From Gammaproteobacteria bacterium (GTDB lineage: Bacteria; Pseudomonadota; Gammaproteobacteria; Eutrophobiales; Eutrophobiaceae): a stretch of DNA of 64,000 nt. This document shows positions 1,750 to 64,000 of this stretch, in pieces. A program made the position numbers and the translations under genes. Below the pieces are notes generated by a model. The model worked only from the letters and a program-made list of their open reading frames with translations. It searched no databases and was not told where the DNA came from. The stretch spans positions 1,398,007 through 1,462,006 of the forward strand of contig CBDEUK010000002.1 of the NCBI GenBank assembly GCA_965243205.1, in the 5' to 3' direction. Numbering within the stretch: position 1 is the stretch's first letter; each line of letters opens with the position of its first letter.

Positions 1750-2655
1750 ATGAATAAATTCAGTTTAGCCCTTTTAACTCTTCTTTTACTACAAGCATGT
1801 TCTGAAAAAACACCAAATGAAATAACTTCCAGTGAAAAAGAACAAGCGAACAAGCTTGAATTAAGCTGGGAACTAACTGGCCTATCAACACCAGAGTCAG
1901 CACTTTATGACTCCGATAAAAACATCATTTATGTTTCTAACATAAATGGCGGTCCTATGGAGAAAGATGGTAATGGTTTTATTTCTATCATTTCCCCTGA
2001 AGGCAAACTTATTAATTTAAATTGGGTAAAGGGTTTAAACGCACCTAAAGGAATGAGCTTATTCGCTGATAAACTTTATGTTGCAGATATAGATATGCTA
2101 GTTGTTATCGATACCAATACTGGTGACATTCTTGAACAATATCAAGGCAGCAATGCAAAGTTTCTGAATGATGTCACCGTAACAAAAGATGGTAAGGTAT
2201 TTGTTTCTGATATGTTAACCAACACGATATATTGTTTGGAAGGAAGTACATTCGATGTTTGGCTTAACGACGAAAAACTCATCTCACCGAATGGCTTACA
2301 CGCAGAACCAGAACAACTTATCGTAGGTAGCTGGGGAGTGATGACAGATGGCTTCGCCACTAAAGTGCCTGGTCATATGTTATCTGTTCATTATGATTCA
2401 AAATCTATTTCAAACCTGGGCAATGGCCAATCGGTGGGGAACCTAGATGGTGTTGAACCTATCGGAGAAAATTTTCTAGTAACCGATTGGATGGTAGGCA
2501 AATTATATAAGATTGATCGCGCTGGAAATGCTGAGTTACTTCTTGAATTAGAACAGGGTATGGCTGATCATGAATTTATTACTGAAGAAAATCTTATATT
2601 ACTACCCATGATGAAGAACGACAAACTGCTGGCTTATACCCTATCTGTCCATTAA
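1750..2655 (+). CDS. lipoprotein, probable beta-propeller (SGL/NHL-like) fold
   Basis: Signal peptide with lipobox LLQAC|S. The repetitive beta-rich sequence suggests the fold only weakly. Confidence 0.6.
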   Translation: MNKFSLALLTLLLLQACSEKTPNEITSSEKEQANKLELSWELTGLSTPESALYDSDKNIIYVSNINGGPMEKDGNGFISIISPEGKLINLNWVKGLNAPKGMSLFADKLYVADIDMLVVIDTNTGDILEQYQGSNAKFLNDVTVTKDGKVFVSDMLTNTIYCLEGSTFDVWLNDEKLISPNGLHAEPEQLIVGSWGVMTDGFATKVPGHMLSVHYDSKSISNLGNGQSVGNLDGVEPIGENFLVTDWMVGKLYKIDRAGNAELLLELEQGMADHEFITEENLILLPMMKNDKLLAYTLSVH

Positions 2656-2679
2656 TTCGCCTTACATAGATTTACTTAT

Positions 2680-2708
2680 ACAGAGTTCATTCCTACACTG
2701 AACTCTGT
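2680..2708 (+). terminator. stem-loop downstream of the lipoprotein gene (10-bp stem ACAGAGTTCA/TGAACTCTGT)
   Basis: Perfect inverted repeat seen in the sequence. No U-tract follows, so terminator function is uncertain. Confidence 0.4.
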
Positions 2709-2807
2709 AAAAGCTGCTGCAAGTTATTAAATTATATAAAATTCTAGTTGATATAAATCCACGCTTAGAGTATACATTTAGAATTACATAAGCAATGGTA
2801 TGGCAAT

Positions 2808-5525: not shown

Positions 5526-6611
5526 TTATACATTAAAACGAAATAACATTACATCACCATCTTGGACGATGTAATCTTTGCCTTCAAGTCGCCATTTGCC
5601 AGCTTCCTTTGCACCTTGTTCACCGTTATTTTCAATATAATCTTCATACGCGGTTACTTCAGCACGAATGAAGCCTTTTTCAAAATCAGTATGAATAACA
5701 CCTGCAGCTTTAGGTGCAGAACAACCTTGAGGAATAGTCCAAGCTCGCGCTTCTTTTGGACCAGCAGTGAAATAGGTTTGTAATCCTAGTAATTCATAAC
5801 CTGCACGAATGATTCTATTCAATCCTGGTTCTTCTAAACCAATTTCGCTTAAAAAATCAGCCTTATCGGATTCATCCAGTTCGGCTATTTCCGATTCAAT
5901 CGCGGCACATACTGGAATCACCTGAGTACCTTCTTCTTTAGCAAGCTCAGTTAATTTTGCTAACCATTCGTTGGACTCAATACCATCTTCTTCGACATTG
6001 GCAATATATAAAATTGGTTTAGACGTTAACAATTGTAAATTACCGATTTCCATTTCAGCAAAGCCATCTAATGTTCTAACGGGTGCACCAGTATCTAAAT
6101 GTTTAGCAATCAACTCTAATTGCTCTTGTTGAGTTTTGGCTTCCTTATTTCCACTGCGAGATAATTTTAAAACTTTTTGTAATGCCTTATCTATTGTCTC
6201 TTGATCCGCTAAACACAATTCAGTATTGATGATATCAATGTCTTCTAAAGGATTTACTCGACCAGATACATGCACAATATTTTCATCTTCAAAACATCGG
6301 ACTACTTGAGCAATTGCTTGGGTTTCTCTGATATGGGCTAAAAACTGATTCCCTAAACCTTCACCTTTAGAAGCACCTTCAACCAAACCGGCTATATCAA
6401 CAAAATCCATATGCGCAGGAATCACTTCTTTGGATTGAGCAATCTTGGAAATCTTATCCAAGCGCGGATCAGGAACAGGAACTACACCAACATTTGGCTC
6501 GATTGTGCAAAAAGGATAATTCTCAGCATCAATACCAGAATTGGTTAATGCATTAAATAAAGTTGATTTACCAACGTTTGGTAAACCGACGATGCCACAT
6601 TTAAAACCCAT
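5526..6611 (-). CDS. ychF: redox-regulated ribosome-binding ATPase YchF
   Basis: [13 protein letters not shown]-loop and a TGS-like C-terminus. Conserved pth-ychF synteny. Confidence 0.95.
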
Positions 6612-51008: not shown

Positions 51009-51085
51009 GGGCCCTTAGCTCAGTTGGTTAGAGCAGTGGACTCATAATCCATTGGTCGAAGGTTCGAGTCCTTCAGGGCCCACCA
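51009..51085 (+). tRNA. ileX: tRNA-Ile2 (anticodon CAU, lysidine-dependent, ileX-like)
   Basis: Hand-folded cloverleaf: acceptor GGGCCCT/AGGGCCC, anticodon loop CTCATAA, T-arm GAAGG-TTCGAGT-CCTTC, encoded CCA. C4 and C5 in the acceptor stem, GAGCAG and the TTGGTCG variable loop resemble E. coli ileX as I recall it rather than elongator tRNA-Met. ileX also follows rpoD in E. coli. Confidence 0.85.
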
Positions 51086-51421
51086 ATAAAATCAATGGTT
51101 TAGGCTAAATATCTAACTAACCTTCACTTTATTTTCCCGATCTGCTTACCCTTAACGAGTTTGTGAGCACAAATTTCTATATAAATCACTTGTACCTATA
51201 GTTCGATCCTCTCTTAAGACTATGTTTATCGCTCATAATCAAGAATAGTTATTTATGTTTTTGATTTGTATAGATTTATCGAGGGAATATATAGTGAAAT
51301 ACCCTCAAAAATACCCGCTTTTTATTTTTTCAATACAGGATGAATTCTTATTTTAATAGATACGTAATCTCTTTAAGATATAAATTATTCTAAAAATAAA
51401 ATATTAATATAAGGAAATGTC

Positions 51422-52051
51422 ATGAAGACACTAGCAGTTATTTTTATTCTCACTTTTTCGTTAATTACCAATTCCTACTCAGCCGTTATCTATGATGAAT
51501 CAATAGATGGAGATCTCCCTATAATAATTGATTTCGATGTCAATAATTCGAATTACTTAGGTGTTCTGGGTGCCGGCCAAAACCAAATAAAAGGCTCGAC
51601 TTTCACCCGAGTAAGGCCAAGTATTTTTTCGGATGAAGATCATTTATTTTTCTCAATTTCTGAAGGTTATGAATTCACTTCTATTTCTATTTTATATGAT
51701 GTTACTCGAGATGTTGGTCTTAACACTTCATTCGCACTGCTAAGTCTTGAAAAGGTAAGAGGTAGATTTTTTGACGAGATAGCTATTCTTACTGGAGAAT
51801 TAGTGAACAGACCTGATTTGGCAACCCCCAAATCAGAATTTTTTCTTCCTAGCCTAGGCGAAGGAGATTATAGATTAGGCGGTTTTTCAGGTGCTCATAC
51901 ATTACTCTCGAGTACAGATGCCGTTGTTGTATGGGATTACACAATAACTTTAGATGTTACTGCCCCGGTTCCAATCCCAGCCACATCATGGTTATTCATT
52001 TCAGGCTTAGGTTTATTAGGCTTTAAAAGAAAACATAACTCATATAGGTGA
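51422..52051 (+). CDS. secreted protein with VPIPA-type PEP-CTERM tail
   Basis: Signal peptide (…NSYSA|V), YDESIDGDL block, and C-terminus VPIPATSWLFISGLGLLGFKRKH. Confidence 0.75.
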   Translation: MKTLAVIFILTFSLITNSYSAVIYDESIDGDLPIIIDFDVNNSNYLGVLGAGQNQIKGSTFTRVRPSIFSDEDHLFFSISEGYEFTSISILYDVTRDVGLNTSFALLSLEKVRGRFFDEIAILTGELVNRPDLATPKSEFFLPSLGEGDYRLGGFSGAHTLLSSTDAVVVWDYTITLDVTAPVPIPATSWLFISGLGLLGFKRKHNSYR

Positions 52052-52096
52052 TTAACTAATCCTTCTCAATAGATAACTCCCTAAAAAAGCGACTTT

Positions 52097-52576
52097 ATGA
52101 CAATATACAAACATCTATTCATATACTCATTGTGTATATTTTCAACTACGACTTTTAGTTATTACCCTGACTCAGCTAATCCTGATGAAGCCGTTGGCCA
52201 AATGAAAACTAGAATCATAACAATTGAAACACATAAACAAGAATGTTTAAGGTTTAATCCAGATTTAAAAATTGAAATCGAAGATAAATTTACACAATGG
52301 GAAGAGATTGAAAAAATATATATTGAAAAAGCAGAATTTTATACGTTCGAACTCAAAAAAAAGAATCCAGAACTGATAAATCAAATTAATAAAATTTCTG
52401 AAATGATATTGAATCAGACTAAATACACCTTTGATAATGTCGGTGAAGTTGGCGGTGAAAAATTAGTAAATGAGTATTGCTTAAACTTTTTTGAAGAATT
52501 AATTAATGGTAGTTGGAAAAAAAGAACTCCGAACTTATATAAATACTTAGATCAGTTGCCAGAAATATACGATTAA
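52097..52576 (+). CDS. hypothetical secreted protein (159 aa)
   Basis: ORF with a hydrophobic N-terminus; no motif recognised. Confidence 0.5.
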   Translation: MTIYKHLFIYSLCIFSTTTFSYYPDSANPDEAVGQMKTRIITIETHKQECLRFNPDLKIEIEDKFTQWEEIEKIYIEKAEFYTFELKKKNPELINQINKISEMILNQTKYTFDNVGEVGGEKLVNEYCLNFFEELINGSWKKRTPNLYKYLDQLPEIYD

Positions 52577-52625
52577 AATTACAAATAATAACTTTATTAA
52601 AACTAAAATCATTAGTGACTTAAAA

Positions 52626-53186
52626 ATGAATCTTCTAAAAACCTTATTTATATTATCTTTAATATCACTCTGTTCTTGTGTAGATACTAAAACTGTTAAA
52701 AACTACTCTATTAATGAAGACATAACAATTAATGAAAACGAAGGCTTAATAGTTGTAGAAATTGATTCTAATGATCATCGAACTAGATCACTTATCTATC
52801 AAAATGAATGGGGTTCAGGAACCAATAACCCATTCGGCGCAGCACTTATATCATTAGAAGGAACTGTTGGTGACGATAGATTTAGGATATTTAAAGTAAG
52901 CCCAATCGAAGGAGGATTAAAGTTACAATTTTTTCTAACTTCAGATGGAGCAACATATTATGCTAAAGAGCAAGAGTATAAATTTGATTTCATGCCAGGA
53001 GAAATCACATATATAGGACATATTCGTATAAGTTGGGATTTTGTTAATCAAACAATTAATACATACGTAACAGATAAAGAAAAAGAAATACTAGAAGAGA
53101 TAGAAATCAGATATCCATCCTTATTACGAAAATATAAATTTAATAACATGGTTGATGCTTCCATTAAATCCCTCGAAGATAGGTAA
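52626..53186 (+). CDS. hypothetical lipoprotein (186 aa)
   Basis: Lipobox ISLCS|C. Confidence 0.6.
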   Translation: MNLLKTLFILSLISLCSCVDTKTVKNYSINEDITINENEGLIVVEIDSNDHRTRSLIYQNEWGSGTNNPFGAALISLEGTVGDDRFRIFKVSPIEGGLKLQFFLTSDGATYYAKEQEYKFDFMPGEITYIGHIRISWDFVNQTINTYVTDKEKEILEEIEIRYPSLLRKYKFNNMVDASIKSLEDR

Positions 53187-53221
53187 CTATCTCTTATTTA
53201 TTTTATATATGTGCTCCAACC

Positions 53222-53279
53222 ATATAACAAGTAAATTCATCCGACCGCTGGCTCAGCCGGCTAAATTCAAACGTTAAGG
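53222..53279 (+). mobile_element. candidate integron attC ('59-base element') recombination site
   Basis: 58 bp: ATATAAC-AAGTAAATTCATCCGAC-CGCTGGCTCAGC-CGGCTAAATTCAAAC-GTTAAGG. It has an inverse-core-like left end, a core-like GTTAAGG right end and an imperfect internal palindrome. It is GC-richer than its flanks. Confidence 0.5.
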
Positions 53280-53291
53280 ATCATAAGACTC

Positions 53292-53678
53292 ATGGATCAA
53301 TATTCATATCAAGAAACCAAGGATGATGTGATCTCATTAATGAATGAGACTATCGAGCATGGAGGTTCAATATGTGATGGTTTGGGGCGTGCTGAAGTTG
53401 AGTACTGGCTTGGGCCACTAGAGATAAATGAATCCGAACCAACTCCATATAACCTTAAATTGTTGGCCGCAGTTTCAATTGGCAGCTTGAGGCAGGAAAA
53501 TAGCTTGGAAATAGATGATCTTTATCAAGTTGTTGAGAATCTCCTCGTAAATATGGAAGCACCCGATGTTGCAGCTATAGCGCCTGATTCAATAAATCAG
53601 CTTGTTTGTGAAACATCAAAAGCTTTCGGAGAAAGTCTCGCAAATAAAGTTAAGTCAGTAGTGACAATCAATGCTTAA
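53292..53678 (+). CDS. hypothetical acidic cytoplasmic protein (128 aa), cassette-like
   Basis: No signal peptide. Visibly GC-richer than its neighbours. The stop codon sits inside GCTTAAC, which fits RYYYAAC. Confidence 0.55.
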   Translation: MDQYSYQETKDDVISLMNETIEHGGSICDGLGRAEVEYWLGPLEINESEPTPYNLKLLAAVSIGSLRQENSLEIDDLYQVVENLLVNMEAPDVAAIAPDSINQLVCETSKAFGESLANKVKSVVTINA

Positions 53679-53719
53679 CAAATCATTCCGCATGACAAAT
53701 TAAAAAGTAGATCTAATAA

Positions 53720-54382
53720 ATGAAGTTAAAAAATATATTATCTAATACAAAGAATGCCTTTTTCCTACCATTAATTCTCATAACTTTATCTAGCTGTGGT
53801 GGTGTTGATCAATATAGAGATAACCTAGTTAAAGTCACGGCTCCTAGTTATTTCGTATTAGAAAAACATCTTGAGTATACGTTTGATATTGAAAATGTTT
53901 TTGGACAAGAAGTAGTACGAATAGTTAAATTCAAAAGAGGTAGATATACAGCTTTCTCTGAAAATGAAAATGGGACTTACTATACTACTGAAGATGGTGA
54001 TTATAATTTCTTAAATATTATTAAAGTTGAAGGAGAAGTATTCGGTCACCCTGATACAGGTTTCCATATGGGTGGGTTATGGATTACGAAAGAACAAAAT
54101 CCAAAGGCATTTCCATATCTTATCAATGGAGGCACTAAATCCATTGAGGAAGGTTTAAACTATTTTAATAATAGTAATCTTGAAGTTCCTAGAATAGAAG
54201 AAAATGGTTATGTATATAAAGACCATATACCGAGTATGGGTACTGATGAACTAATATTACATAATGCTGCTTCAAGCACAGTAGTAGGATATCTTGCAAC
54301 TATGGACATTGGAAAGCCAACATTAGAATTAGAAATGCCACCAGAAGTATTTAGAAAAAATATTAAAATTATTCATCATTAA
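53720..54382 (+). CDS. hypothetical lipoprotein (220 aa)
   Basis: Lipobox TLSSC|G. Confidence 0.6.
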   Translation: MKLKNILSNTKNAFFLPLILITLSSCGGVDQYRDNLVKVTAPSYFVLEKHLEYTFDIENVFGQEVVRIVKFKRGRYTAFSENENGTYYTTEDGDYNFLNIIKVEGEVFGHPDTGFHMGGLWITKEQNPKAFPYLINGGTKSIEEGLNYFNNSNLEVPRIEENGYVYKDHIPSMGTDELILHNAASSTVVGYLATMDIGKPTLELEMPPEVFRKNIKIIHH

Positions 54383-54962
54383 CAATCATAGGCCATCGCT
54401 TAAACTTTAATTCAGGCGGTGGCACTGTAATTACATAGACTCTTACCTCATCTCCACTTGATACTAAGAGTCCTGCTATGAATTGACCCTCTTTTAATTC
54501 AATCCAATGAGGATTCTTATCTAAGTCTCTTTCCATAAAACTATCAGCGGGGATTTTAACCTCGAAAAGCCGCTCCTGTTGTATTCCAACGAGTCTCAGT
54601 ACCTTTAAGTTTAATAGCTACACACATTGGGAACTATTATATATAAATACCAGGAGCTGGTCCTTTTTAGAAAATGCTTATATATATCGATACTTCTATA
54701 GAGGTTTTTTGGTTTTAAAGGATAATTCATGGAGTCACCAACTGTTTGTTTGAAAACATTAAGTAACGATAAAGGAGAATAATTTCAAGCAAACTTTAAA
54801 TCAGTTATTCCTTTTTAAAAATAATATTTTTACTTCTAACACATTCTTTTAGAAAACATATCTAATCGTCATATTATTTTAATGATTATTTACTATTATT
54901 AAATTACTCATATTCAAACAGAATATTAATTACACTTTATTTTGGAACAAAGGAAAAAAGGA

Positions 54963-55739
54963 ATGAAAATCTTTCTCACATCATTATTATTTTTGAGTCT
55001 AAATATCTGTCACGCTGCCCATATAAACGTGTTTTTTGCGGGCGGACAGTCTAATGCTAGGGCTACATGGGCTAGCGCTATTGAAAACTCTCTAGTCGAC
55101 TCAGGCGTAGAAAATGTCATGATGGTTCATGATTATCATGGTGGAAACTGGCTTGGCTCTTGGTGGAATCCCTATACAAACTCACCCTCTGATAACTATC
55201 TAAACGACTTCTTTAACCCTGCTGGAACAGGCCTTTTACAGCAAACTCTAGAGAATATTACCAATAATGGTGACACCTTTAGTTTCTCTGGATTCTTCTG
55301 GTTTCAAGGGGAGGGCGATCAAAACGGCGCTGCTCATAGAGATAGATATGTCGATAATTTCGTGGAAATGACGAACCGCCTTCAGTTTGATATCTCAGGC
55401 GAAAGTACTAGAAAATTCCCCATAGCAACCGCTTTAATCGATGTTTCTGATTATGACTTGTATTTAGAATTAGCACTTCAGTCTTACCCAGATCCCGATT
55501 TAAACGAATTAAGACAGTTTATATCCGCTTACGCTGATTCAAATCCTGATGTTGTGGCAGTTGATTCAAGAGGATTCGATAGATACGACCTGTTTCACCT
55601 ATCACAAGCAGGCTCTACAACCTTTGGAACTCAGATGGGGCAGGCGTTTAGCAGTTTATTAGTGCCTATTCCTGCGGCTTTTTGGCTGTTTGTCTCGGCT
55701 TGTATTAGTTTAGTTGGACTAAGAAGAAATAGCCTTTGA
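54963..55739 (+). CDS. SGNH-type esterase (sialate O-acetylesterase/DUF303-like) with VPIPA-type PEP-CTERM tail
   Basis: ATG at 54963 has an AAGGA RBS. Signal peptide, FFAGGQSN block, DLFHL (DxxH), and C-terminus VPIPAAFWLFVSACISLVGLRRN. Confidence 0.7.
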   Translation: MKIFLTSLLFLSLNICHAAHINVFFAGGQSNARATWASAIENSLVDSGVENVMMVHDYHGGNWLGSWWNPYTNSPSDNYLNDFFNPAGTGLLQQTLENITNNGDTFSFSGFFWFQGEGDQNGAAHRDRYVDNFVEMTNRLQFDISGESTRKFPIATALIDVSDYDLYLELALQSYPDPDLNELRQFISAYADSNPDVVAVDSRGFDRYDLFHLSQAGSTTFGTQMGQAFSSLLVPIPAAFWLFVSACISLVGLRRNSL

Positions 55740-55754
55740 ACAAAAATTTTATGA

Positions 55755-56351
55755 TTAATGTTTTCGTTTAAAACCTAATAGACCAAGTAAGGCTGGAGTT
55801 AATAACCAAACTGCTGTAGGGATAGGGACAGATGTTGGTGTAAAGATAGCATACGAAATAGGGCCGTATCTTCCTAAATGTATAGATGAAACATTACCCA
55901 ATAAAGTAGTCCCAATAGCTTTCCATTCAGTGTATGGTGAATATACATCAGCTTCACCAAAATAAGTCCAGTGAGAAGTATAAGATGATTCAAATGGAAG
56001 AAATGGTGAGCCGCCTAAAGTATGAGGAATGACTATAGAATGTGCTACAAACCCAGAAGAATCAGAAACAACATAAAATGGCCCAGAATTTAAAATATCT
56101 GAAATGAAGCCAGTTGATAACAATGCTCCCGAACTATCACCTAAAAAATTAGGTGTTCTATCTAGATCTGGTATCTCACCAAATATGCTAGTAAAAGAAC
56201 CTACATGAAATGTAATGTCATAAACTACATTCGAATACTCATAATTAGTGATTTTAATTACATGACCATAAGGGTTTGTAATAACAGCAGCATTAACAGA
56301 GTTCGATAAACTGAATATTCCAAGCAGAATAAATATTATTTTCTTAATCAT
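55755..56351 (-). CDS. secreted protein with VPIPT-type PEP-CTERM tail
   Basis: Start set at MIKKIIFILLG, whose ATG overlaps the upstream stop (ATGA). C-terminus VPIPTAVWLLTPALLGLLGFKRKH. Confidence 0.7.
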   Translation of the reverse strand: MIKKIIFILLGIFSLSNSVNAAVITNPYGHVIKITNYEYSNVVYDITFHVGSFTSIFGEIPDLDRTPNFLGDSSGALLSTGFISDILNSGPFYVVSDSSGFVAHSIVIPHTLGGSPFLPFESSYTSHWTYFGEADVYSPYTEWKAIGTTLLGNVSSIHLGRYGPISYAIFTPTSVPIPTAVWLLTPALLGLLGFKRKH

Positions 56352-57055
56352 CTTTTCCTTTTTATTCCAACTAACCCAATCAAAGCAGAACCGAATAACC
56401 ATACTGCTGCGGGGGTGGGGACAACTGTGACTGAGAATGTGGGCGAATAGTCTCTATATTCTACGTCTGTAAATTTGTAACGTTTACCACCTCCACCTAA
56501 TCCAAATGTCGTAATTCTTGGTATAATCTCTTCTCGATAAGTGGTATCCATTAAAAATGAACCACCAGTATATTCTGCGAATTGAAGTAATGCTGGGAAA
56601 TCGGGATTGCCATCAAAATTAAACAGGCTCAGTGGAAAGTGAAGGTTGCCTCCCCATCTAAAAGTTGATTCACCAATATCTGTTCCCTGTAATACATTTA
56701 TCTGATCAACCGCTGCAACACCCTCAATAAAATCAGTAATTACAAAATCATTCCCACAGCATAAAGTGTTCCCCCCTCCTTGGTAAATATTATCGAAGTC
56801 TGAGCCAGACAATTTTAATGTCGCGCTTTTCAAATCATATTCAGTTACTTCGAAAGTTCTAAAATTTCTATAACTGTGATCAGAATCATCAATGATATAC
56901 GTAGCATGATAATTAGCTCCATTAAGACTCCATACATAGTCTAAATTGGATTCGGTGGTTTCTGTTAACGTTCCTAAGATTTCAATCTTATATATAGCTG
57001 ATTGAGCTACGTTTGAAGACAACAGTATAAAAAATGTTATTAATATTTTATTCAT
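56348..57055 (-). CDS. secreted protein with VPTPA-type PEP-CTERM tail
   Basis: Signal peptide. C-terminus VPTPAAVWLFGSALIGLVGIKRKR. Confidence 0.7.
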   Translation of the reverse strand: MNKILITFFILLSSNVAQSAIYKIEILGTLTETTESNLDYVWSLNGANYHATYIIDDSDHSYRNFRTFEVTEYDLKSATLKLSGSDFDNIYQGGGNTLCCGNDFVITDFIEGVAAVDQINVLQGTDIGESTFRWGGNLHFPLSLFNFDGNPDFPALLQFAEYTGGSFLMDTTYREEIIPRITTFGLGGGGKRYKFTDVEYRDYSPTFSVTVVPTPAAVWLFGSALIGLVGIKRKR

Positions 57056-57067
57056 TTCTATTTTCTT

Positions 57068-57829
57068 CTAGTGGAGCTTACGACTTTTGAAAACTAATCC
57101 AATTAAAGCTGATCCAAATAACCATATAGCTGCCGGAATTGGTACTGGCTGAGGCAAACTTATAAAAGATAAAGCATCATCACCAATCGAATAATTAAAG
57201 AAATCCCATTCACTACTCGACAATGGGTTATTAGAAAAGCTTTGCCATCCAGATAGATCGAAAGTTCGGGCAGCAAGTTCATATGGTATATCAAATATTA
57301 AATCTGTATTTGCGTAGACTTGTATATTTTCACGCCGATTTTTAAATATCGTATAGGTATGAAAATCTGATGTATCGAAAGGACTAACTATATCAGTTCT
57401 ATCAGGAGAAGAGCCTGCTCTTAACATAAGTTCACCGTTACGTAAGAACAAGAGTAAGTTTCCACTGTCTTTGCCCCCATTCCCCCATCTAAGTTGTATA
57501 ACTCCTCCAGGAGATAGTCCTTGGATAGGTAAAATAGCATTAGGAATTCTTGCTCTAAATTGAAATATTGCTAAATCTGAACTAAAGAACGGATCATTTC
57601 TAACATTTGTAATAGAACCAGTAATCTCTTGAACTGACATTTTTAATATCCCGTTTTCAATTGCTCTGGTATCAGTTCGACTATCGTTATAATTAAAGGG
57701 CTGAGAAGATACATTAGGTAACACACTACCATCATATTCCACAAAGAGAGTGGCAGCCTTAATATTAAATTGAATTGAAAGAAGAGCTAAAAAAAGAGAA
57801 AAGCGAGAAATTGAATTTATATTTAGCAT
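57068..57829 (-). CDS. secreted protein (possibly LamG/concanavalin-like) with VPIPA-type PEP-CTERM tail
   Basis: Signal peptide. C-terminus VPIPAAIWLFGSALIGLVFKSRK. The fold guess is weak. Confidence 0.7.
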   Translation of the reverse strand: MLNINSISRFSLFLALLSIQFNIKAATLFVEYDGSVLPNVSSQPFNYNDSRTDTRAIENGILKMSVQEITGSITNVRNDPFFSSDLAIFQFRARIPNAILPIQGLSPGGVIQLRWGNGGKDSGNLLLFLRNGELMLRAGSSPDRTDIVSPFDTSDFHTYTIFKNRRENIQVYANTDLIFDIPYELAARTFDLSGWQSFSNNPLSSSEWDFFNYSIGDDALSFISLPQPVPIPAAIWLFGSALIGLVFKSRKLH

Positions 57830-58190
57830 TGTTTTATCCTTCCATGAACGAAGTACAAATATTTTAACAAATTTAAATTACCGAGCTATTACAAGCACAA
57901 GTATATTCTATTGGAGATTTAGCTTATATATTATTTTTTCCCTCATCTGCTCCCAAAGTATGAATGACATTTCTTATTCTGTAATTAATTTTTAATACAA
58001 ATGTAACTCTAATCAAACTATATGGGAGTATTTTCCGTAATAGTTTTCTGTTAATTCTCTTTTGAGTTGATTTGAAAACTCACCACTTCTATTAAATAAA
58101 GAATGCTGATGTTTAGTTTGCTTATCAAGTATGTGTTGAACTGAAGGATTATTTATTTTTTTATCAATTTTTATTTAAGGATGTATAAAG

Positions 58191-59807
58191 ATGAAATTAA
58201 CTTATATTACTAAAGTAGCCCCATTACTCCTGGCATATTTTTTTTCTAGTCAATCTTTTGCCTTTGATAGTAGTACTACTACCCCTGATCTTGTTATCAA
58301 TATCTCAGGCTCCTCTTCTCAACAAGAACCATTGGAAGATTTAATAATTTCTTTACAGATCTGTACTGGTAACATTACACAGTATCGAGAAATTAATGAT
58401 GATTTTCGTGCCTATTTTTGTACTGCTAATTCCAATACTGGTGTTGCGAGTAATACAAAAATATTGATCAATGTTCGTTCTAGTGGTGGTTCAATCTGGG
58501 GAGTGGTTCCCATAGCGCGTGATTGGCCTGTCCAATTTATGAATATTTTTAATAGTAATTGTTCAGATACTACAGTGTATCGAAAAACCGCTTCTGGTAG
58601 TGATATGGTTAATCCTGCTGGCGATGGTATCTTTGGTTGTGAAATATTCAATCCAGCTTCTGGATTAGTAAATAATGAATGTCCTAATGGCGTTGCTTAT
58701 GCAACAGACGGTTCTTCTATTGCCTATCCTGGTGGCTTGTTAACACATAAAGGCACTGGGTTTGGTGATACAGTATGTTTACCATCTCACGGTGGTGTAT
58801 CTGATGTTGAAGCATCTTTGTTCTCACACCCCTCAAATTTTGCTTTCTCAGGTCAAACACCCCTATCTGATATCGAAATAAACGCATTAACTACAGTGTC
58901 ACAATATGCTGTTATTTATGGTGTCAAAATAACTGAGCATGAATATAAGTGGTTACAACAAATTCAAGGTTTGGTTGATTATACTGCCGGCGGTACAACT
59001 CTAAATGATGATATTAAAGCAGCATCCGTAATAACAGGAACTGGTACTGTTCCAAGTTTAACCAAAGCTGAAATTGCTGCCATGTTAACCGGCCAAATGT
59101 CATTTCAACAACTTGACCCCAGAATTATTGCTGCTGATATTAATAATCCTATAAATAACAGCGGTATTTATGCCGTTTGTCGCCATAATGTTGGTTCCGG
59201 TGCTCAAGCCACAAACCAAGAGTATTTTTTACAAACTGCGTGTTCTCAAGGTGGTTTACCTATGGTTACTAATGGTCTGTCTGATGACCGAGCTCAGTGG
59301 AATGGTAATACTCTTATTGTTAAAAGGAACACTAGCTCTGCTAGAGTTGATAAATGTTTAAATGACGCTGTAAATGGCAATATTTCAGACGAACCTGGAG
59401 TAGGCTTTAATGATGCAAGCCCAGTTGGCGCTATTGGCTTCGGCCCAATTAACCGTATTTTCGACCCAGGTAAGGATAAATGGTATTTTGTAGCCATCGA
59501 TGGTGTTGAGCCTACTCGAGAGAATGCTCGCCTAGGTTTATATGATTATGTTTATGAACAGTTCTTTCATACCCTAAGCTCCTCTCCAAATAACCCGAGT
59601 CATATTAATACTTTTCTTGATTCTTTGGCTGTTCAATCAGGTAGTCCTACTACTATTGGTACTGTACCAATTAACGGTACTTTAGCTTTAAGTGCAAATG
59701 GTTTTAATTGGGATAACAGTTTGGTTACATGGCGTGGATCACGTGGCAGCAACAGCTGTAGAGCGGTACGTTCTGCTATAGATAATCCAAATATTTCTAA
59801 TCTTTAA
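58191..59807 (+). CDS. large secreted hypothetical protein (538 aa), possibly a PstS/PBP-like fold
   Basis: Signal peptide (…SQSFA|F). INISGSSSQ, SSGGSIWG and GGVSDVE blocks are loosely PBP type-2-like. No CTERM tail. Confidence 0.6.
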   Translation: MKLTYITKVAPLLLAYFFSSQSFAFDSSTTTPDLVINISGSSSQQEPLEDLIISLQICTGNITQYREINDDFRAYFCTANSNTGVASNTKILINVRSSGGSIWGVVPIARDWPVQFMNIFNSNCSDTTVYRKTASGSDMVNPAGDGIFGCEIFNPASGLVNNECPNGVAYATDGSSIAYPGGLLTHKGTGFGDTVCLPSHGGVSDVEASLFSHPSNFAFSGQTPLSDIEINALTTVSQYAVIYGVKITEHEYKWLQQIQGLVDYTAGGTTLNDDIKAASVITGTGTVPSLTKAEIAAMLTGQMSFQQLDPRIIAADINNPINNSGIYAVCRHNVGSGAQATNQEYFLQTACSQGGLPMVTNGLSDDRAQWNGNTLIVKRNTSSARVDKCLNDAVNGNISDEPGVGFNDASPVGAIGFGPINRIFDPGKDKWYFVAIDGVEPTRENARLGLYDYVYEQFFHTLSSSPNNPSHINTFLDSLAVQSGSPTTIGTVPINGTLALSANGFNWDNSLVTWRGSRGSNSCRAVRSAIDNPNISNL

Positions 59808-59823
59808 TGTACATATAATAGTT

Positions 59824-59850
59824 TAGCCCTCTTTAGTGGAGGGCTAATTT
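59824..59850 (+). terminator. rho-independent terminator after the 538-aa gene
   Basis: TAGCCCTC-tttagtg-GAGGGCTA followed by ATTTAT. Confidence 0.6.
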
Positions 59851-60109
59851 ATCACTGGGAAAGCTTTAAGTGTTGTTTCCTTCGATGGATGGTTTTCTTA
59901 CGTTCAAGGGCGGCTATTTTCAATATTAATTAATCTACTTATATAGTCGCTTGGTATCCTTTCTTTTTGACTATATCAATAGCTTGGGAAGCTCTCTTCC
60001 TTGATATAAACCAAGCAGACTCATATTCTTTGTTGTCAGCAGAATCATTTTCCTTATTAAATGAATTCTCATTCTTTGAATAACTGTTTTTCCACGAAAG
60101 GAGTAAGAA

Positions 60110-60421
60110 ATGAGTCTAAATAAAATCTTTCTTTATGCTGAATACCAAGTTTCAATTCCATTTGATCAAATAGATTGGAAACCCATTAATGAAAATATGA
60201 AGCAGTTTGATGGTTTGAAAAGCAAGACCTGGCTGAGTGGATTAAATAATAATACGGTTGGTGGTTTCTATGAATTTTCATCTCAGGATTTAGCACAAAA
60301 ATACATTGATGAATTATTGCTACCTTTTGCAGAAAAGATTAGCGGAAATCTTTCTGTAAAGTTATTTGACGGGAATGTTGTAGCAGAGGCGAGCAAGGGT
60401 ATGGATTCGCCATTTTTCTAA
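60110..60421 (+). CDS. small YdhR-like / ABM-fold protein
   Basis: 103 aa. GLKSKTWL...GGFYEF block resembles the YdhR family as I recall it. Confidence 0.5.
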   Translation: MSLNKIFLYAEYQVSIPFDQIDWKPINENMKQFDGLKSKTWLSGLNNNTVGGFYEFSSQDLAQKYIDELLLPFAEKISGNLSVKLFDGNVVAEASKGMDSPFF

Positions 60422-60470
60422 GGTTATATGGCCAGCAGAATACACAGAATGACTACCTTTTCCAAAAGCA

Positions 60471-60487
60471 ATGTTATAACATAACAT
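60471..60487. promoter_or_regulatory. Zur box ATGTTAT-AAC-ATAACAT
   Basis: Perfect 7-3-7 palindrome containing the GTTAT-N3-ATAAC Zur core. Lies 31 nt upstream of the COG0523 GTPase ATG. Confidence 0.75.
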
Positions 60488-60518
60488 ATTGGATTAGAGT
60501 TTTAAAAGAGATGAGTTT

Positions 60519-61733
60519 ATGCAGAGTAATGAGATAAATAAGCTTCCAGTAACCGTATTGTCAGGTTTCCTTGGAGCTGGAAAAACCACTGTACTTAGCC
60601 ACATTTTAAATAATAGAGAAGGTAAAAAAGTGGCTGTAATAGTGAATGATATGAGCGAGATTAATATCGATTCCAGCATTATCAAAAATGAAGTCTCGCT
60701 TAATCGCAGTGAAGAAAAACTAGTCGAAATGAGTAATGGATGTATCTGTTGCACCTTGCGAGAAGATTTATTGATAGAAGTCAATAAACTAGCTCAAGAA
60801 GGTAAATTTGATTATCTAGTTATTGAATCAACAGGGATTTCCGAGCCTCTGCCTGTGGCTGAAACGTTCACATTTGCTGATGAAGAAGGTGTTTCTCTAT
60901 CGGACGTATCAACACTCGACACAATGGTAACCGTTGTTGATGCGGTGAACTTTCTCAAAGATTATGAAGAAGCACAATCATTGCAAGATACGGGTGAATC
61001 GTTAGGTGAGGAGGATGAACGCAGTGTTGCAGACTTACTGATAGACCAAGTGGAATTTGCCGATGTCATTCTCATCAGCAAAACTGATCTGGTTGAGTCT
61101 TCTGATATAGAACGTCTCATGGCTATTCTCAAATCACTCAACACAGATGCGCGCATGATTCCTATATCTCAAGGACAAGTTGATATAGATAAAGTCTTAA
61201 ATACGGGTTTATTCGATTTTGAACGTGCTCAACTAGCGCCAGGTTGGCTTAAAGAAATGCGCGGAGAACACGTACCTGAAACAGAAGAGTATGGAATCAG
61301 CAGTTTCAGTTATCTCGCCAGACGACCTTTCCACCCAGAAAAATTCTTTCAGTTTCTACACAGCACAGGACAATTCGGTAAATTAATCCGCTCAAAAGGT
61401 TATTTTTGGTTAGCCTCACAACCTGAAGCAGCTGGACAATGGAGTCAAGCGGGTGGTATTGCTCGATATGGTTTTGCTGGAATGTTTTGGAAAGCGGTTC
61501 CTAAGAAAGACTGGCCTGATGATGAAGAATACCTAGCATCGATACAGAAACATTGGGTAGAACCGTTTGGTGATATGCGACAAGAATTGGTCTTTATCGG
61601 CCAAGGTTTAGATGAAGCGAAAATGACTGAGGCATTGAACAATTGCTTACTGAGTGAAGAAGAAGTTCTACGCGGCAAAGACTATTGGATGACATTAAAT
61701 GATCCTTTTCCTTATTGGAGAGAGACAGAATGA
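60519..61733 (+). CDS. COG0523-family G3E GTPase (ZigA/YeiR-like zinc metallochaperone)
   Basis: P-loop GFLGAGKTT, CxCC metal motif (GCICCTL) and CobW C-terminal domain. Confidence 0.88.
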
Positions 61734-62413
61734 GTGCCGTTATTCATCAATTTCCTCAACAAAACATATTATCGCCCCTAAAATATCGCTGCTCCGCTGA
61801 ATCGGAGCAAGCCTCCATTTTTGCCGATGTTTATCGTGACGATACGAATATCATAGTATGGAAACGTCATCTTTCGGATAGCTTTCAAAGTGCTATTCAT
61901 GAATTTATAAAATCTAACGAAAATTTTCGACTTGTACAGGCTGTCAGTCCAGAATCAGTTAATGAAATTCTACATAAATCATTAGACGATATGAGATGTA
62001 AAACAGAGCTAAGTAATAACATTACTGAGTTAGTCGAAATGTTTTGTGATTTATTTGATCTGAAATCAGTTGGTTTACGATTAACTACTCTAGATCGTGC
62101 CATGTGTCCTAAATTCCATTTCGATCGAGTTCCTTGCCGACTAGTCACCACCTTTCACGGTGTTGCAACAGAATGGCTACCACATAGCGCTGTCGACAGA
62201 ACGAAACTTGGTCCCGGCAGCCAGGGACTAAGCGATGATAAATCAGGCCTTTATAAAGAAGAGCAAGATATCCAACAATTAAATACTGGTGATGTAGCAT
62301 TATTAAAAGGTGAACTTTGGGAAGGTAATGAAGATGCAGGCTTAGTACATCGCTCACCAGCAGTTATGGAAGGAGAAAATCGTTTATTACTCACGCTTGA
62401 TTTTTTAAACTAA
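61730..62413 (+). CDS. DUF1826-like protein
   Basis: The ATG overlaps the upstream stop (ATGA). This family commonly accompanies COG0523 genes in Zur regulons; the assignment is from memory. Confidence 0.6.
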
Positions 62414-62446
62414 GCCTTTAAACCGCAACTAAGGCCATTATCTAAA

Positions 62447-63040
62447 ATGAAATATGAAACATACTTTGTATTTATCATTTTGTTTTTATGTGTGAGTTTC
62501 AATCTGAAAGCAGAACCCCATAAAGAGCACCATGACCATGGTAATCAATCAGCACATGTTCATGGTTTAGCCAGTTTAACGTTAGCAATAGAAAATAATG
62601 AACTTGAAATAGAATTAAACTCTCCTGCAGTTGATTTGGTTGGTTTTGAGCATCGTGCAAATTCACTGGAAGAAAAAAGCATGGTTGAAAAAACAGAAGC
62701 ATTATTGCATTCACCTGAAAAAATATTTTCTTTTAAAGGTTCTAAATGTAAAGCAAAAGAAATAAATATAGATACGTCTGATGTCACGGCCATAAAAAAT
62801 AAGCATCATGCTCATGATGAACATGAACATCACGACTCAGACAGACATAATCAGGACCATAGCGAAGTCACTGCTCATTACCATTTTAGTTGCGACAAGA
62901 CCAATAATTTAACTACGGTAGTTGTTAACTTGTTTGAACATTTCCCAACTTTGGAAAACATTAACAGTATGTGGGTTACTGAAATTCAACAAGGCGCAGC
63001 AATGCTTAATAAAGATAAAAATATAATTAATATAAAATAA
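62447..63040 (+). CDS. zrgA: ZrgA-like (DUF2796) His-rich periplasmic zinc-binding protein
   Basis: Signal peptide. His-rich runs (HKEHHDHGNQSAHVHG; HHAHDEHEHHDSDRHNQDH) and an LEIELNSPAVDLVGFEH block. Confidence 0.75.
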   Translation: MKYETYFVFIILFLCVSFNLKAEPHKEHHDHGNQSAHVHGLASLTLAIENNELEIELNSPAVDLVGFEHRANSLEEKSMVEKTEALLHSPEKIFSFKGSKCKAKEINIDTSDVTAIKNKHHAHDEHEHHDSDRHNQDHSEVTAHYHFSCDKTNNLTTVVVNLFEHFPTLENINSMWVTEIQQGAAMLNKDKNIINIK

Positions 63041-63046
63041 ATATAA

Positions 63047-63454
63047 ATGATTAAAAATCTACAAGTATTCACGGATAAAATAGCGATAAGTCTTTCGATG
63101 CTTTGCGCGATTCATTGCTTAATACTGCCGTTATTCATTTTATCATTACCGAACTTAAGCTTATTACAATTCATTAATAATGAATCGTTTCATTTATGGA
63201 TGTTATTAGTGGTTATTCCTACTAGCCTATGTGCTTTAACTTTAGGTTGTAAAAAACATGGTCGTTATCATTTATTCGTATACGGAGTTATTGGTTTAGC
63301 AGTGATGATTCTAGCGATTCTATTAACTGAGGTATTTCTATCAGAATCTTGGGAAAAGATATTAACTGTAATAGGCGCAAGTATTATTGCAATAGGACAT
63401 TACAAGAACTATCAATTGTGCCAAAAACACGATTGTTGTTCGTGCTCTGTATAA
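63047..63454 (+). CDS. MerC-like four-TM metal transport protein with Cys-rich C-terminus
   Basis: LCAIHCLILP motif in TM1 and a CQKHDCCSCS tail. Confidence 0.6.
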   Translation: MIKNLQVFTDKIAISLSMLCAIHCLILPLFILSLPNLSLLQFINNESFHLWMLLVVIPTSLCALTLGCKKHGRYHLFVYGVIGLAVMILAILLTEVFLSESWEKILTVIGASIIAIGHYKNYQLCQKHDCCSCSV

Positions 63455-63478
63455 AACTATATAATATAAAAAGATATT

Positions 63479-64000
63479 TTATTCTTCAGTATAAGGTTCT
63501 AATTCCTGACCTGACATACTGTAAGCAGAAGTCGCCATATCATTATTAATCAATGTAGTTTTAAGGATACCCGATACCCAAAATGGATCATATAAAGCAT
63601 CCAGCGTAAAACCCTTTGGATATTTAACATAAATGATCTGATTAGGTGGCGGTGGTGGGACATGAATACAAGCGCCGAAATATGGCACCAGAAAAAATTC
63701 TGTTATCACTTGATCATCATTATATTCCAAAGGCACTATAAACCCTGGTATTTTTACAGCCTGGCCATCGAATTCTTCAATGACCCGGGTAGAAACTAAC
63801 GCTTGTTGGAAACGATCAGCCGTTTCTCTTTGACTTTCATCTTCAAGCGGTTTTTGAAGTTTAAAGGTAACATCATCTTCAGGTGAACCGTCTTCAATCT
63901 CTGATAGGTAGTCTGGAGGGTTTAATAATGCCTCCAAATCATCTTGCGGTAATAGGTCATCCCAATCGACAGATTTATATGAGTATTTTTCAGGCTTAGG
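63479..64000 (-). CDS. DUF3299-like (ZrgD-like) protein, 5' end beyond the window
   Basis: Frame stays open to nt 64000 (PKPEKYSYKSVDWDDLLPQDD...). PGFIVPLE...FFLVPYFGACIHVPPPPPNQ block. Confidence 0.7.
   Translation of the reverse strand, partial: PKPEKYSYKSVDWDDLLPQDDLEALLNPPDYLSEIEDGSPEDDVTFKLQKPLEDESQRETADRFQQALVSTRVIEEFDGQAVKIPGFIVPLEYNDDQVITEFFLVPYFGACIHVPPPPPNQIIYVKYPKGFTLDALYDPFWVSGILKTTLINNDMATSAYSMSGQELEPYTEE

Follow-up and report, generated by a model that had tools for sequence, protein, structure and literature searches.

The bottom strand of an integron attC site folds as an imperfect hairpin, and the integrase IntI cuts the site between C and AA of 5'-AAC-3' (G|TT on the top strand) and joins the incoming circular cassette there. 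As the crossover takes place at G|TT in the R' box, the cassette keeps a TTRRRY leader and takes on whichever attC lay upstream. Solitary attC sites, or SALINs, are hidden by default in tools of the IntegronFinder type, owing to false positives. A SALIN is a single attC with an adjacent CDS and with neither intI nor any other att site nearby (bioRxiv 10.1101/2022.09.11.507474), and a census of 21,105 complete genomes gave 3400 of them (Loot et al., bioRxiv 10.1101/2022.09.11.507474). SALINs and small CALINs, a CALIN being a cluster of attCs without integrase, are classes described with IntegronFinder 2.0 (PMC9024848). Moreover, cassettes are frequently inserted at attG sites, for which GWT suffices (Loot et al., bioRxiv 10.1101/2022.09.11.507474).

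The locus studied here lies in a window of 64 kb (the whole stretch of DNA that was analysed) from an uncultured, marine-type gammaproteobacterium, whose RpoD finds its best match in a MAG, at 74% in the best segment and 72.5% over the full length (local tblastn). The preliminary description of this DNA had proposed a solitary attC-like site in front of a compositionally distinct ORF of 128 aa, either as a lone attC or as a decayed cassette array. This proposal is supported by a covariance-model match, a junction at G|TT, homologues of the cassette and the lack of a second attC in the window. The locus is a single-attC, SALIN-type relic of at least two cassettes (Table 1). Very probably, the 58-bp segment is an integron attC and the unit that follows it is an integron gene cassette inserted there, the locus having decayed since.

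Table 1. Features of the locus, and of the loci used for comparison and control. Positions without a locus number refer to the window.
Feature	Position	Strand	Remarks
186-aa ORFan	52626..53186	+	lipoprotein-type signal peptide; ends 35 nt before R''; GC 30%, GC3 19%
attC site, 58 bp	53222..53279	+	ATATAACAAGTAAATTCATCCGACCGCTGGCTCAGCCGGCTAAATTCAAACGTTAAGG; runs from R'' to R' on the + strand
R'' box	53222-53228	+	ATATAAC, followed by the L'' arm
GC-rich centre	between L'' and L' arms of the 58-bp attC	+	CCG(ACC)GCTG-GCT-CAGCCGG
R' box	53273-53279	+	GTTAAGG, after the L' arm
Cassette junction	53273..53274	+	IntI crossover G|TT inside R'; similarity break against homologous contexts
Former cassette body	53274..53679	+	18-nt leader TTAAGGATCATAAGACTC, 128-aa ORF, orphan R'' GCTTAAC
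128-aa ORF	53292-53678	+	stop TAA inside GCTTAAC (53673-53679)
Expected attC position	53680..53733	+	AT-rich spacer running into the next ORF (ATG 53720)
220-aa ORFan lipoprotein gene	53720..54382	+	right limit of recognisable cassette DNA; GC 31%, GC3 18%
Homologues' own attCs, 96-bp type	L001 10379-10480; L002 488-585; L003 4316-4413; L090/L092/L093		CM-positive
Homologues' own attCs, other types	L096 584-676; L097 848-958		CM-positive
R2 control matches	L036 16565-16695 and 17151-17248	-	tandem pair, looks like a real cassette array
R2 control match	L046 21664-21724	+	strong attC-model score

Within the 64-kb window the locus agrees with the SALIN definition, having one recognisable attC, no intI, attI or second attC nearby and small ORFs of no assigned function. 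It differs from a simple CDS with an attC at attG in that a proven cassette, with its own site lost, lies downstream of the attC, which makes at least two units. The other classes do not apply: there is one attC in the window rather than the two or more, close together and without intI, of a CALIN; a complete integron would have intI, attI and Pc beside an array, and no intI was found within the 64 kb; and the cassette is not intact, since its 5' TTRRRY boundary is present without its own 3' attC.

The 58-bp segment occupies part of the 105-bp spacer between the 186-aa and the 128-aa ORFs and stops 12 nt short of the ATG of the latter; on re-reading, both the letters and this distance proved to be exactly as first described (53279 against an ATG at 53292). 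Its ends had been called inverse-core-like and core-like, and TAAC of the left box indeed pairs with GTTA of the right one, each box being one position off the consensus RYYYAAC/GTTRRRY. Thus the complementary core boxes of an attC, R'' with ..AAC and R' with GTT...., are present. The resemblance to aadA-type attCs, noted at first, was borne out by common sequence blocks when checked on attCs fetched from class 1 integrons. The sites of aadA1, aadB, catB3 and catB8 measure 60 bp against 58 bp here and have the same TAAC...GTTA R boxes, and the block order TAACAA..TTCA..CCGAC-(GC palindrome)-CGGCT.AA.TCA..CGTTA is common to the window site and to the attCs of aadA1 (GTCTAACAATTCGTTCAAGCCGAC...CGGCTTAACTCAAGCGTTAGAT), catB8 and L002. 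On the other hand, the window site reaches 12.2 bits on the model of this subgroup against 73-90 for its members, the top-strand bulged C and A are not reproduced, and the folding energy is -6.2 against -18.8 kcal/mol.

The 5' boundary of the cassette was defined by comparison with about seven distinct contexts of homologous genes (L001-L003, L090/L091, L092, L093, L094/L096 and L097). Nucleotide similarity between the window and these contexts begins at GTTAAG(C/G)ATCA(A/T)(A/G)AGA, that is, from 53273 onward, while 5' of the junction GTT each locus is different and has the 3' arm of its own attC. The homologous junctions read GTTAAGC and that of the window GTTAAGG. In L001, L002 and L093 the attC match also stops 12 nt before the ATG, which is the same geometry as in the window. 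Integron recombination leaves just such a break of similarity at G|TT. The GTTAAGG with which the segment closes is therefore a real cassette junction, and in these alignments the cassette boundary expected of an attC lies exactly at 53273|53274.

Covariance models of attC were home-made from real attCs; their calibration is rough, and they are not the curated model of IntegronFinder. Model R1 was seeded with seven aadA-type attCs of 60 bp found on four plasmids in class 1 integrons (aadA1, aadB, catB3, catB8, orfD, aadA16 and aadA11), as an ungapped alignment with the structure, including two bulged bases, set by hand. Model R2 came from one Infernal iteration starting from R1 and was trained on 19 attC hits at E<0.004 (duplicates included, window left out) from class 1 integrons and chromosomal arrays, including those of Thiodiazotropha and metagenomes. 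Seeds from a MAFFT alignment of 12 attCs were dropped, the L boxes being out of register and RNAalifold giving only 10 pairs. A scan for AAC...GTT hairpins by folding energy, also home-made, gave too much noise in GC-rich loci and was employed only for collecting known attCs.

A search with an attC covariance model had been suggested as a check of the site, and home-made R2 gave a significant match. Its best match in the window coincides exactly with 53222-53279 on the plus strand (21.7 bits, E 0.013, full length 1-64/64); the runner-up has 11.9 bits, and on the minus strand this site reaches 9.6 bits. The E-value depends on the search space, ranging from about 0.01 to 0.3 (0.013 in the window; 0.31 in a 1.5-Mb control search). 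R1 also places this site first in the window, yet with 12.2 bits and E 1.7, which is at noise level; run on the array loci, R1 detected attCs outside its seed with 16.7-40 bits. True attCs outside the training set of R2 scored 15.7-46.9 bits, for example 15.7-27.1 for the homologues' own 96-bp attC, 22.9 for arr-3 and 15.7-24.9 for VCR-like sites of Enterovibrio, and the 21.7 bits of the window site fall within this range. As a control, R2 was run on 1.45 Mb of unrelated gammaproteobacterial DNA around rpoD (2.9 Mb of strands), where only three matches reached 21.7 bits, two of them as a tandem pair in one MAG that probably represents real attCs. These control matches (23-39 bits) come from two other MAGs of gammaproteobacteria, at a distance of a few kb from rpoD. 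Taken alone, the R2 score is modest evidence for an attC at 53222-53279. The chance that so strong a match ends on the exact base and strand of the junction is about 1e-6, and we identify the segment as an attC because the model match ends exactly at a cassette junction that was defined independently. Rfam, at gathering and E<=10 thresholds, returned nothing at 53222-53279 and only two tRNAs in the window, a result of little weight, no attC family having been returned.

With regard to the fold, the bottom strand of the segment has an MFE of -6.2 kcal/mol (z -1.5), and 17 of 200 shuffled sequences fold as well. Its layout is the right one for an attC, an R box of 5 bp being followed by a 2x2 spacer, by an L box of 8 bp and by a GC stem with a bulge, but the energy is not significant against the shuffles, and G.T wobbles account for three of the bottom-strand pairs. 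On the top strand nothing but the central stem is formed (-4.2 kcal/mol), so that end-to-end folding is seen on the bottom strand only. The arms, said earlier to pair imperfectly, do pair, but weakly: the bottom strands of reference attCs reach -12.6 to -30.3 kcal/mol (z -2.0 to -6.1), with -13.8 to -18.8 kcal/mol (z -2 to -4.9) in one comparison, and the short ones mostly have two single-base bulges on the 3' arm. A look for such extrahelical bases in the bottom strand had also been recommended; the MFE fold of 53222-53279 contains neither of the two canonical ones and no single-base bulge, its R''/L'' arm having a 1x1 mismatch and a 3-nt bulge (GGT) instead. When the canonical register of the covariance model is imposed on the segment, 5 of the 17 window-aligned model pairs are broken and 6 further pairs are deleted. 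Weak attCs do exist in arrays, since the true-looking array site L002 1392-1446 likewise folds poorly. The segment is a recognisable but degraded attC, and this surviving site is probably crippled.

A search of the 128-aa ORF against known cassette ORFs, likewise proposed at the outset, found its homologues in integron arrays elsewhere. Among 5.8 billion proteins there were 11 full-length or near full-length homologues, with 64-78% amino-acid identity; they belong to Enterovibrio makurazakiensis, to two species of Candidatus Thiodiazotropha and to marine metagenomes. The family is rare and patchy, an exhaustive search by profile having yielded only 19 clusters at 50% identity from 1.84 billion representatives. 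In every context with enough flank the homologue sits within a row of small co-directional ORFs. Like those of integron cassette arrays, the spacers in these rows contain AAC...GTT palindromes (50-130 bp), and the small ORFs of the homologue arrays are separated by CM-positive attCs. The row in Enterovibrio adjoins a divergent tyrosine recombinase and holds Barstar, GNAT and Imm11 genes, and the homologue in Thiodiazotropha is placed among PIN/VapB and HipA toxin-antitoxin genes. By these contexts the 128-aa ORF is a bona fide cassette ORF, present in arrays of unrelated gammaproteobacteria. The sedentary chromosomal arrays of Enterovibrio and Ca. Thiodiazotropha share with the window the 128-aa family, the 18-nt leader and the G|TTAAG junction 12 nt before the ATG. 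However, their cassettes are numerous, stand one behind the other and are each followed by an attC, whereas in the window a single attC and a single provable cassette lie between AT-rich ORFans.

Two features of these arrays were observed besides. In the array of Ca. Thiodiazotropha taylori (L003), a group II intron (Rfam RF02005 D1-D4-6, 101 bits) at 2528-2788 (+) stands just after an attC-like TGGCTAACAAG and has the look of a group IIC-attC intron. Next to the array of Enterovibrio, the tyrosine recombinase (L001 5167-6048, minus strand) reaches 162.7 bits with TIGR02249 against an NCBIfam integron-integrase cut-off of 265, and by eye an IntI-specific insertion appears to be absent; the spacer on its cassette side (6040-6267) already carries an attC-like repeat.

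The 128-aa frame is intact, and with a dN/dS of 0.11-0.27 against the homologues the gene is under purifying selection. At the nucleotide level the window copy is 18-24% off every known relative. Pfam and NCBIfam contain no family for the protein, and an exact look-up gave no record of it; its AlphaFold model is all-alpha (pLDDT 82), and a fold comparison of the model with the PDB gave no match with E<0.9. As to the composition of the ORF, described as distinct, it is true that its GC content exceeds that of its neighbours (39.5% vs 28-31%, with a window average of 37.5%), but the ORF is host-like and the AT-rich neighbours are the outliers: GC3 is 31% in the 128-aa ORF, 32-35% in rpoD, dnaG and the CobW-family GTPase gene (60519-61733), and 18-24% in the ORFan neighbours.

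The 3' side of the cassette is different. In the homologues a CM-positive attC of about 93-111 bp comes right after the ORF, and the motif GCTTAAC, in which the window ORF had been seen to end, is the R'' box of the cassette's own attC in all of them. These attCs are of three unrelated types, one of 96 bp in most homologues, a second in L094/L096 and a third in L097. All three diverge directly after GCTTAACAAG, and the window diverges at the same point, its similarity to the homologues ending near 53685. Since at least three unrelated attCs are attached to it in different genomes, the 128-aa ORF and its attC did not always travel together. In the window no attC was found 3' of the cassette: the stretch 53670-53733 is unfolded on both strands (z -0.02 and +0.74), and neither R1 nor R2 matches there at E<=10. 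A second 60-bp attC running from GCTTAAC to GTTAAAA (53672-53731) was considered and rejected, having no fold and no model match. The 128-aa unit is a former cassette, of which the 5' boundary is present and the own attC is lost save for the R'' GCTTAAC and a few bases. Because of this loss the cassette is not excisable by the normal route, and the gene is probably fixed and no longer mobile.

No integrase gene was found beside the site, in agreement with the earlier statement that the window lacks intI: with IntI1 and two further tyrosine recombinases as queries, tblastn gave nothing at E<1 in the 64 kb, the positive control having worked, which leaves an IntI-free stretch of 53 kb upstream and 10.7 kb downstream. 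R1 and R2, run with filters off, showed no second attC in the window either. The 186-aa ORF finds no homologue but itself among the 5.8 billion proteins. By integron logic, the 58-bp attC would belong to this upstream unit, if the unit is a cassette. No attC or GTTRRRY was found upstream as the left boundary of this presumed cassette, so that one attC and one junction are all that supports the reading as a relic of an array. The 220-aa ORF on the other side, the ATG of which follows the stop codon of the cassette ORF by 41 nt, also matches only itself. These two ORFs and a third co-directional one (52097-52576, 159 aa) have a GC3 of 18-24% and, by eye, N-terminal signal peptides. All three may be decayed cassettes or other foreign DNA.

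On a larger scale, synteny with the nearest relatives (tsaD-yqeY-dnaG-rpoD-tRNA-Met) stops at the tRNA-Met (51009-51085), and nothing downstream is common. About 9 kb after the tRNA-Met (51086-60500) are lineage-specific, without integrase or tRNA-end repeat; as no repeat of the 3' end of tRNA-Met was found, there is no classical signature of a tRNA island. The stretch 51045-60000 is covered with zero mismatches by an independent Logan contig (58 kb) from the source metagenome, and the locus is therefore not an assembly chimera; at about 5x depth the metagenome contigs are too shallow for excision variants. A search for an empty site or a syntenic counterpart gave none, both flanking ORFs being ORFans and the relatives having 74% or less in RpoD.

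Several other features were noticed in the same region. A PEP-CTERM-like tail (VPxPAAxWLF..GLxGxKRK) was seen by eye on five proteins, encoded at 51422-52051(+), 54942-55739(+), 55755-56402(-), 56348-57055(-) and 57068-57829(-); the tail DNA of the three minus-strand genes constitutes a 54-nt repeat family (D1), and one of the tailed proteins also has a SASA sialate-esterase domain. The 220-aa ORF is followed by an unusually long non-coding gap of 559 bp (54383-54941), the start of which is overlapped by a 55-aa minus-strand ORF, and a small hairpin at 54649-54661 was called terminator-like on both strands. Further downstream (60519-63937) there is a zinc-related-looking cluster with genes for a CobW-family GTPase, DUF1826, ZrgA, a MerC-like protein and DUF3299.

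Other readings of the locus have to be weighed against decay. The attC may still be active, with IntI encoded elsewhere in the genome or on a plasmid, so that the lone site is a landing pad and the 128-aa cassette a recent capture. Such a state would fit the intact R box (TAAC/GTTA), spacing and orientation, the full hairpin on the bottom strand only and the R2 score within the range of true attCs, and SALINs from integrase activity in trans are documented (bioRxiv 10.1101/2022.09.11.507474). However, a recent canonical insertion would have kept the cassette's own attC, which is gone. Moreover, compared with reference attCs the hairpin is weaker by a factor of two to three and has no single-base bulges, the divergence of 18-24% from all known relatives and a GC3 equal to that of the host also speak against a recent arrival, and the nearest 53 kb upstream and 10.7 kb downstream contain no IntI. 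An active site is in our view quite improbable.

It is also conceivable that the cassette was inserted at an attG (consensus GWT) and that the 51 bp upstream are host spacer resembling an attC by chance, as insertion at attG is frequent and needs GWT only, the stability of the hairpin is not significant and R1 gives E 1.7. In that case, attC x attG recombination would have left the cassette's attC on the 3' side, which is precisely the empty side here. The 21.7 bits of R2 exceed any other position of the window by 10, at most three such matches occur in the 2.9 Mb of control strands and the chance of one at the junction is about 1e-6, and the upstream segment has blocks in common with the attCs of the aadA type and of Thiodiazotropha; a chance resemblance is thus highly improbable. 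Finally, an intrinsic terminator or a REP-type repeat with no link to integrons is suggested by the GC-rich stem in an AT-rich spacer straight after a gene. The terminator scan made no call, though, and on the plus strand the stem is followed by CTAAATTCAAAC rather than by a T-run. A genome-wide REP-type repeat, named at the outset as the finding that would speak against an integron, is not favoured in the window, where the 20-nt GC-rich core occurs once even with up to 3 mismatches allowed, and in metagenomes the 20-mer has 12 exact matches, which have unrelated flanks and are due to chance. Since a terminator or repeat would also leave the junction unexplained, this reading is largely refuted and retains almost no probability.

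We return to the reading as a degraded attC beside a former cassette, for which we infer the order of events. The 58-bp attC would stem, as the 3' site, from an older unit with the 186-aa ORFan in it, and the 128-aa cassette would have been captured there by attC x attC recombination, with IntI supplied in trans. The cassette's own attC would then have been lost, leaving the inverse core GCTTAAC, which may owe its survival to the stop codon inside it. The attC that remained would have gathered mismatches, three of them kept only as bottom-strand G.T wobbles, and would have lost the two single-base bulges that direct strand choice. The end state would be a fixed, probably non-excisable cassette gene under purifying selection beside a solitary attC. 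Its neighbours run in the same direction, and the gene is probably expressed, or read through, together with them.

The 58-bp segment is a real, though weakened, attC, located exactly at the junction with a genuine former cassette. No new mechanism is revealed by the locus, which is an ordinary leftover of cassette traffic and a further example of the SALIN and small-CALIN class. A more far-reaching interpretation, which we find rather doubtful, is that it represents a snapshot of cassette domestication in a small (~2.3 Mb) uncultured genome, where a cassette has lost its own attC and kept that of its neighbour as a weak site, and that the switching of attCs after GCTTAACAAG could point to turnover or replacement of attCs at the R'' end. 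If true, such turnover would lie outside the standard model, in which ORF and attC move together and exchange takes place only at G|TT of R'. At this locus, comparative evidence beyond the model score proves that a single weak attC match is real. Cassette traffic reaches a deep-branching, uncultured gammaproteobacterium without close sequenced relatives, and the locus illustrates how a cassette gene becomes fixed through the loss of its recombination site.
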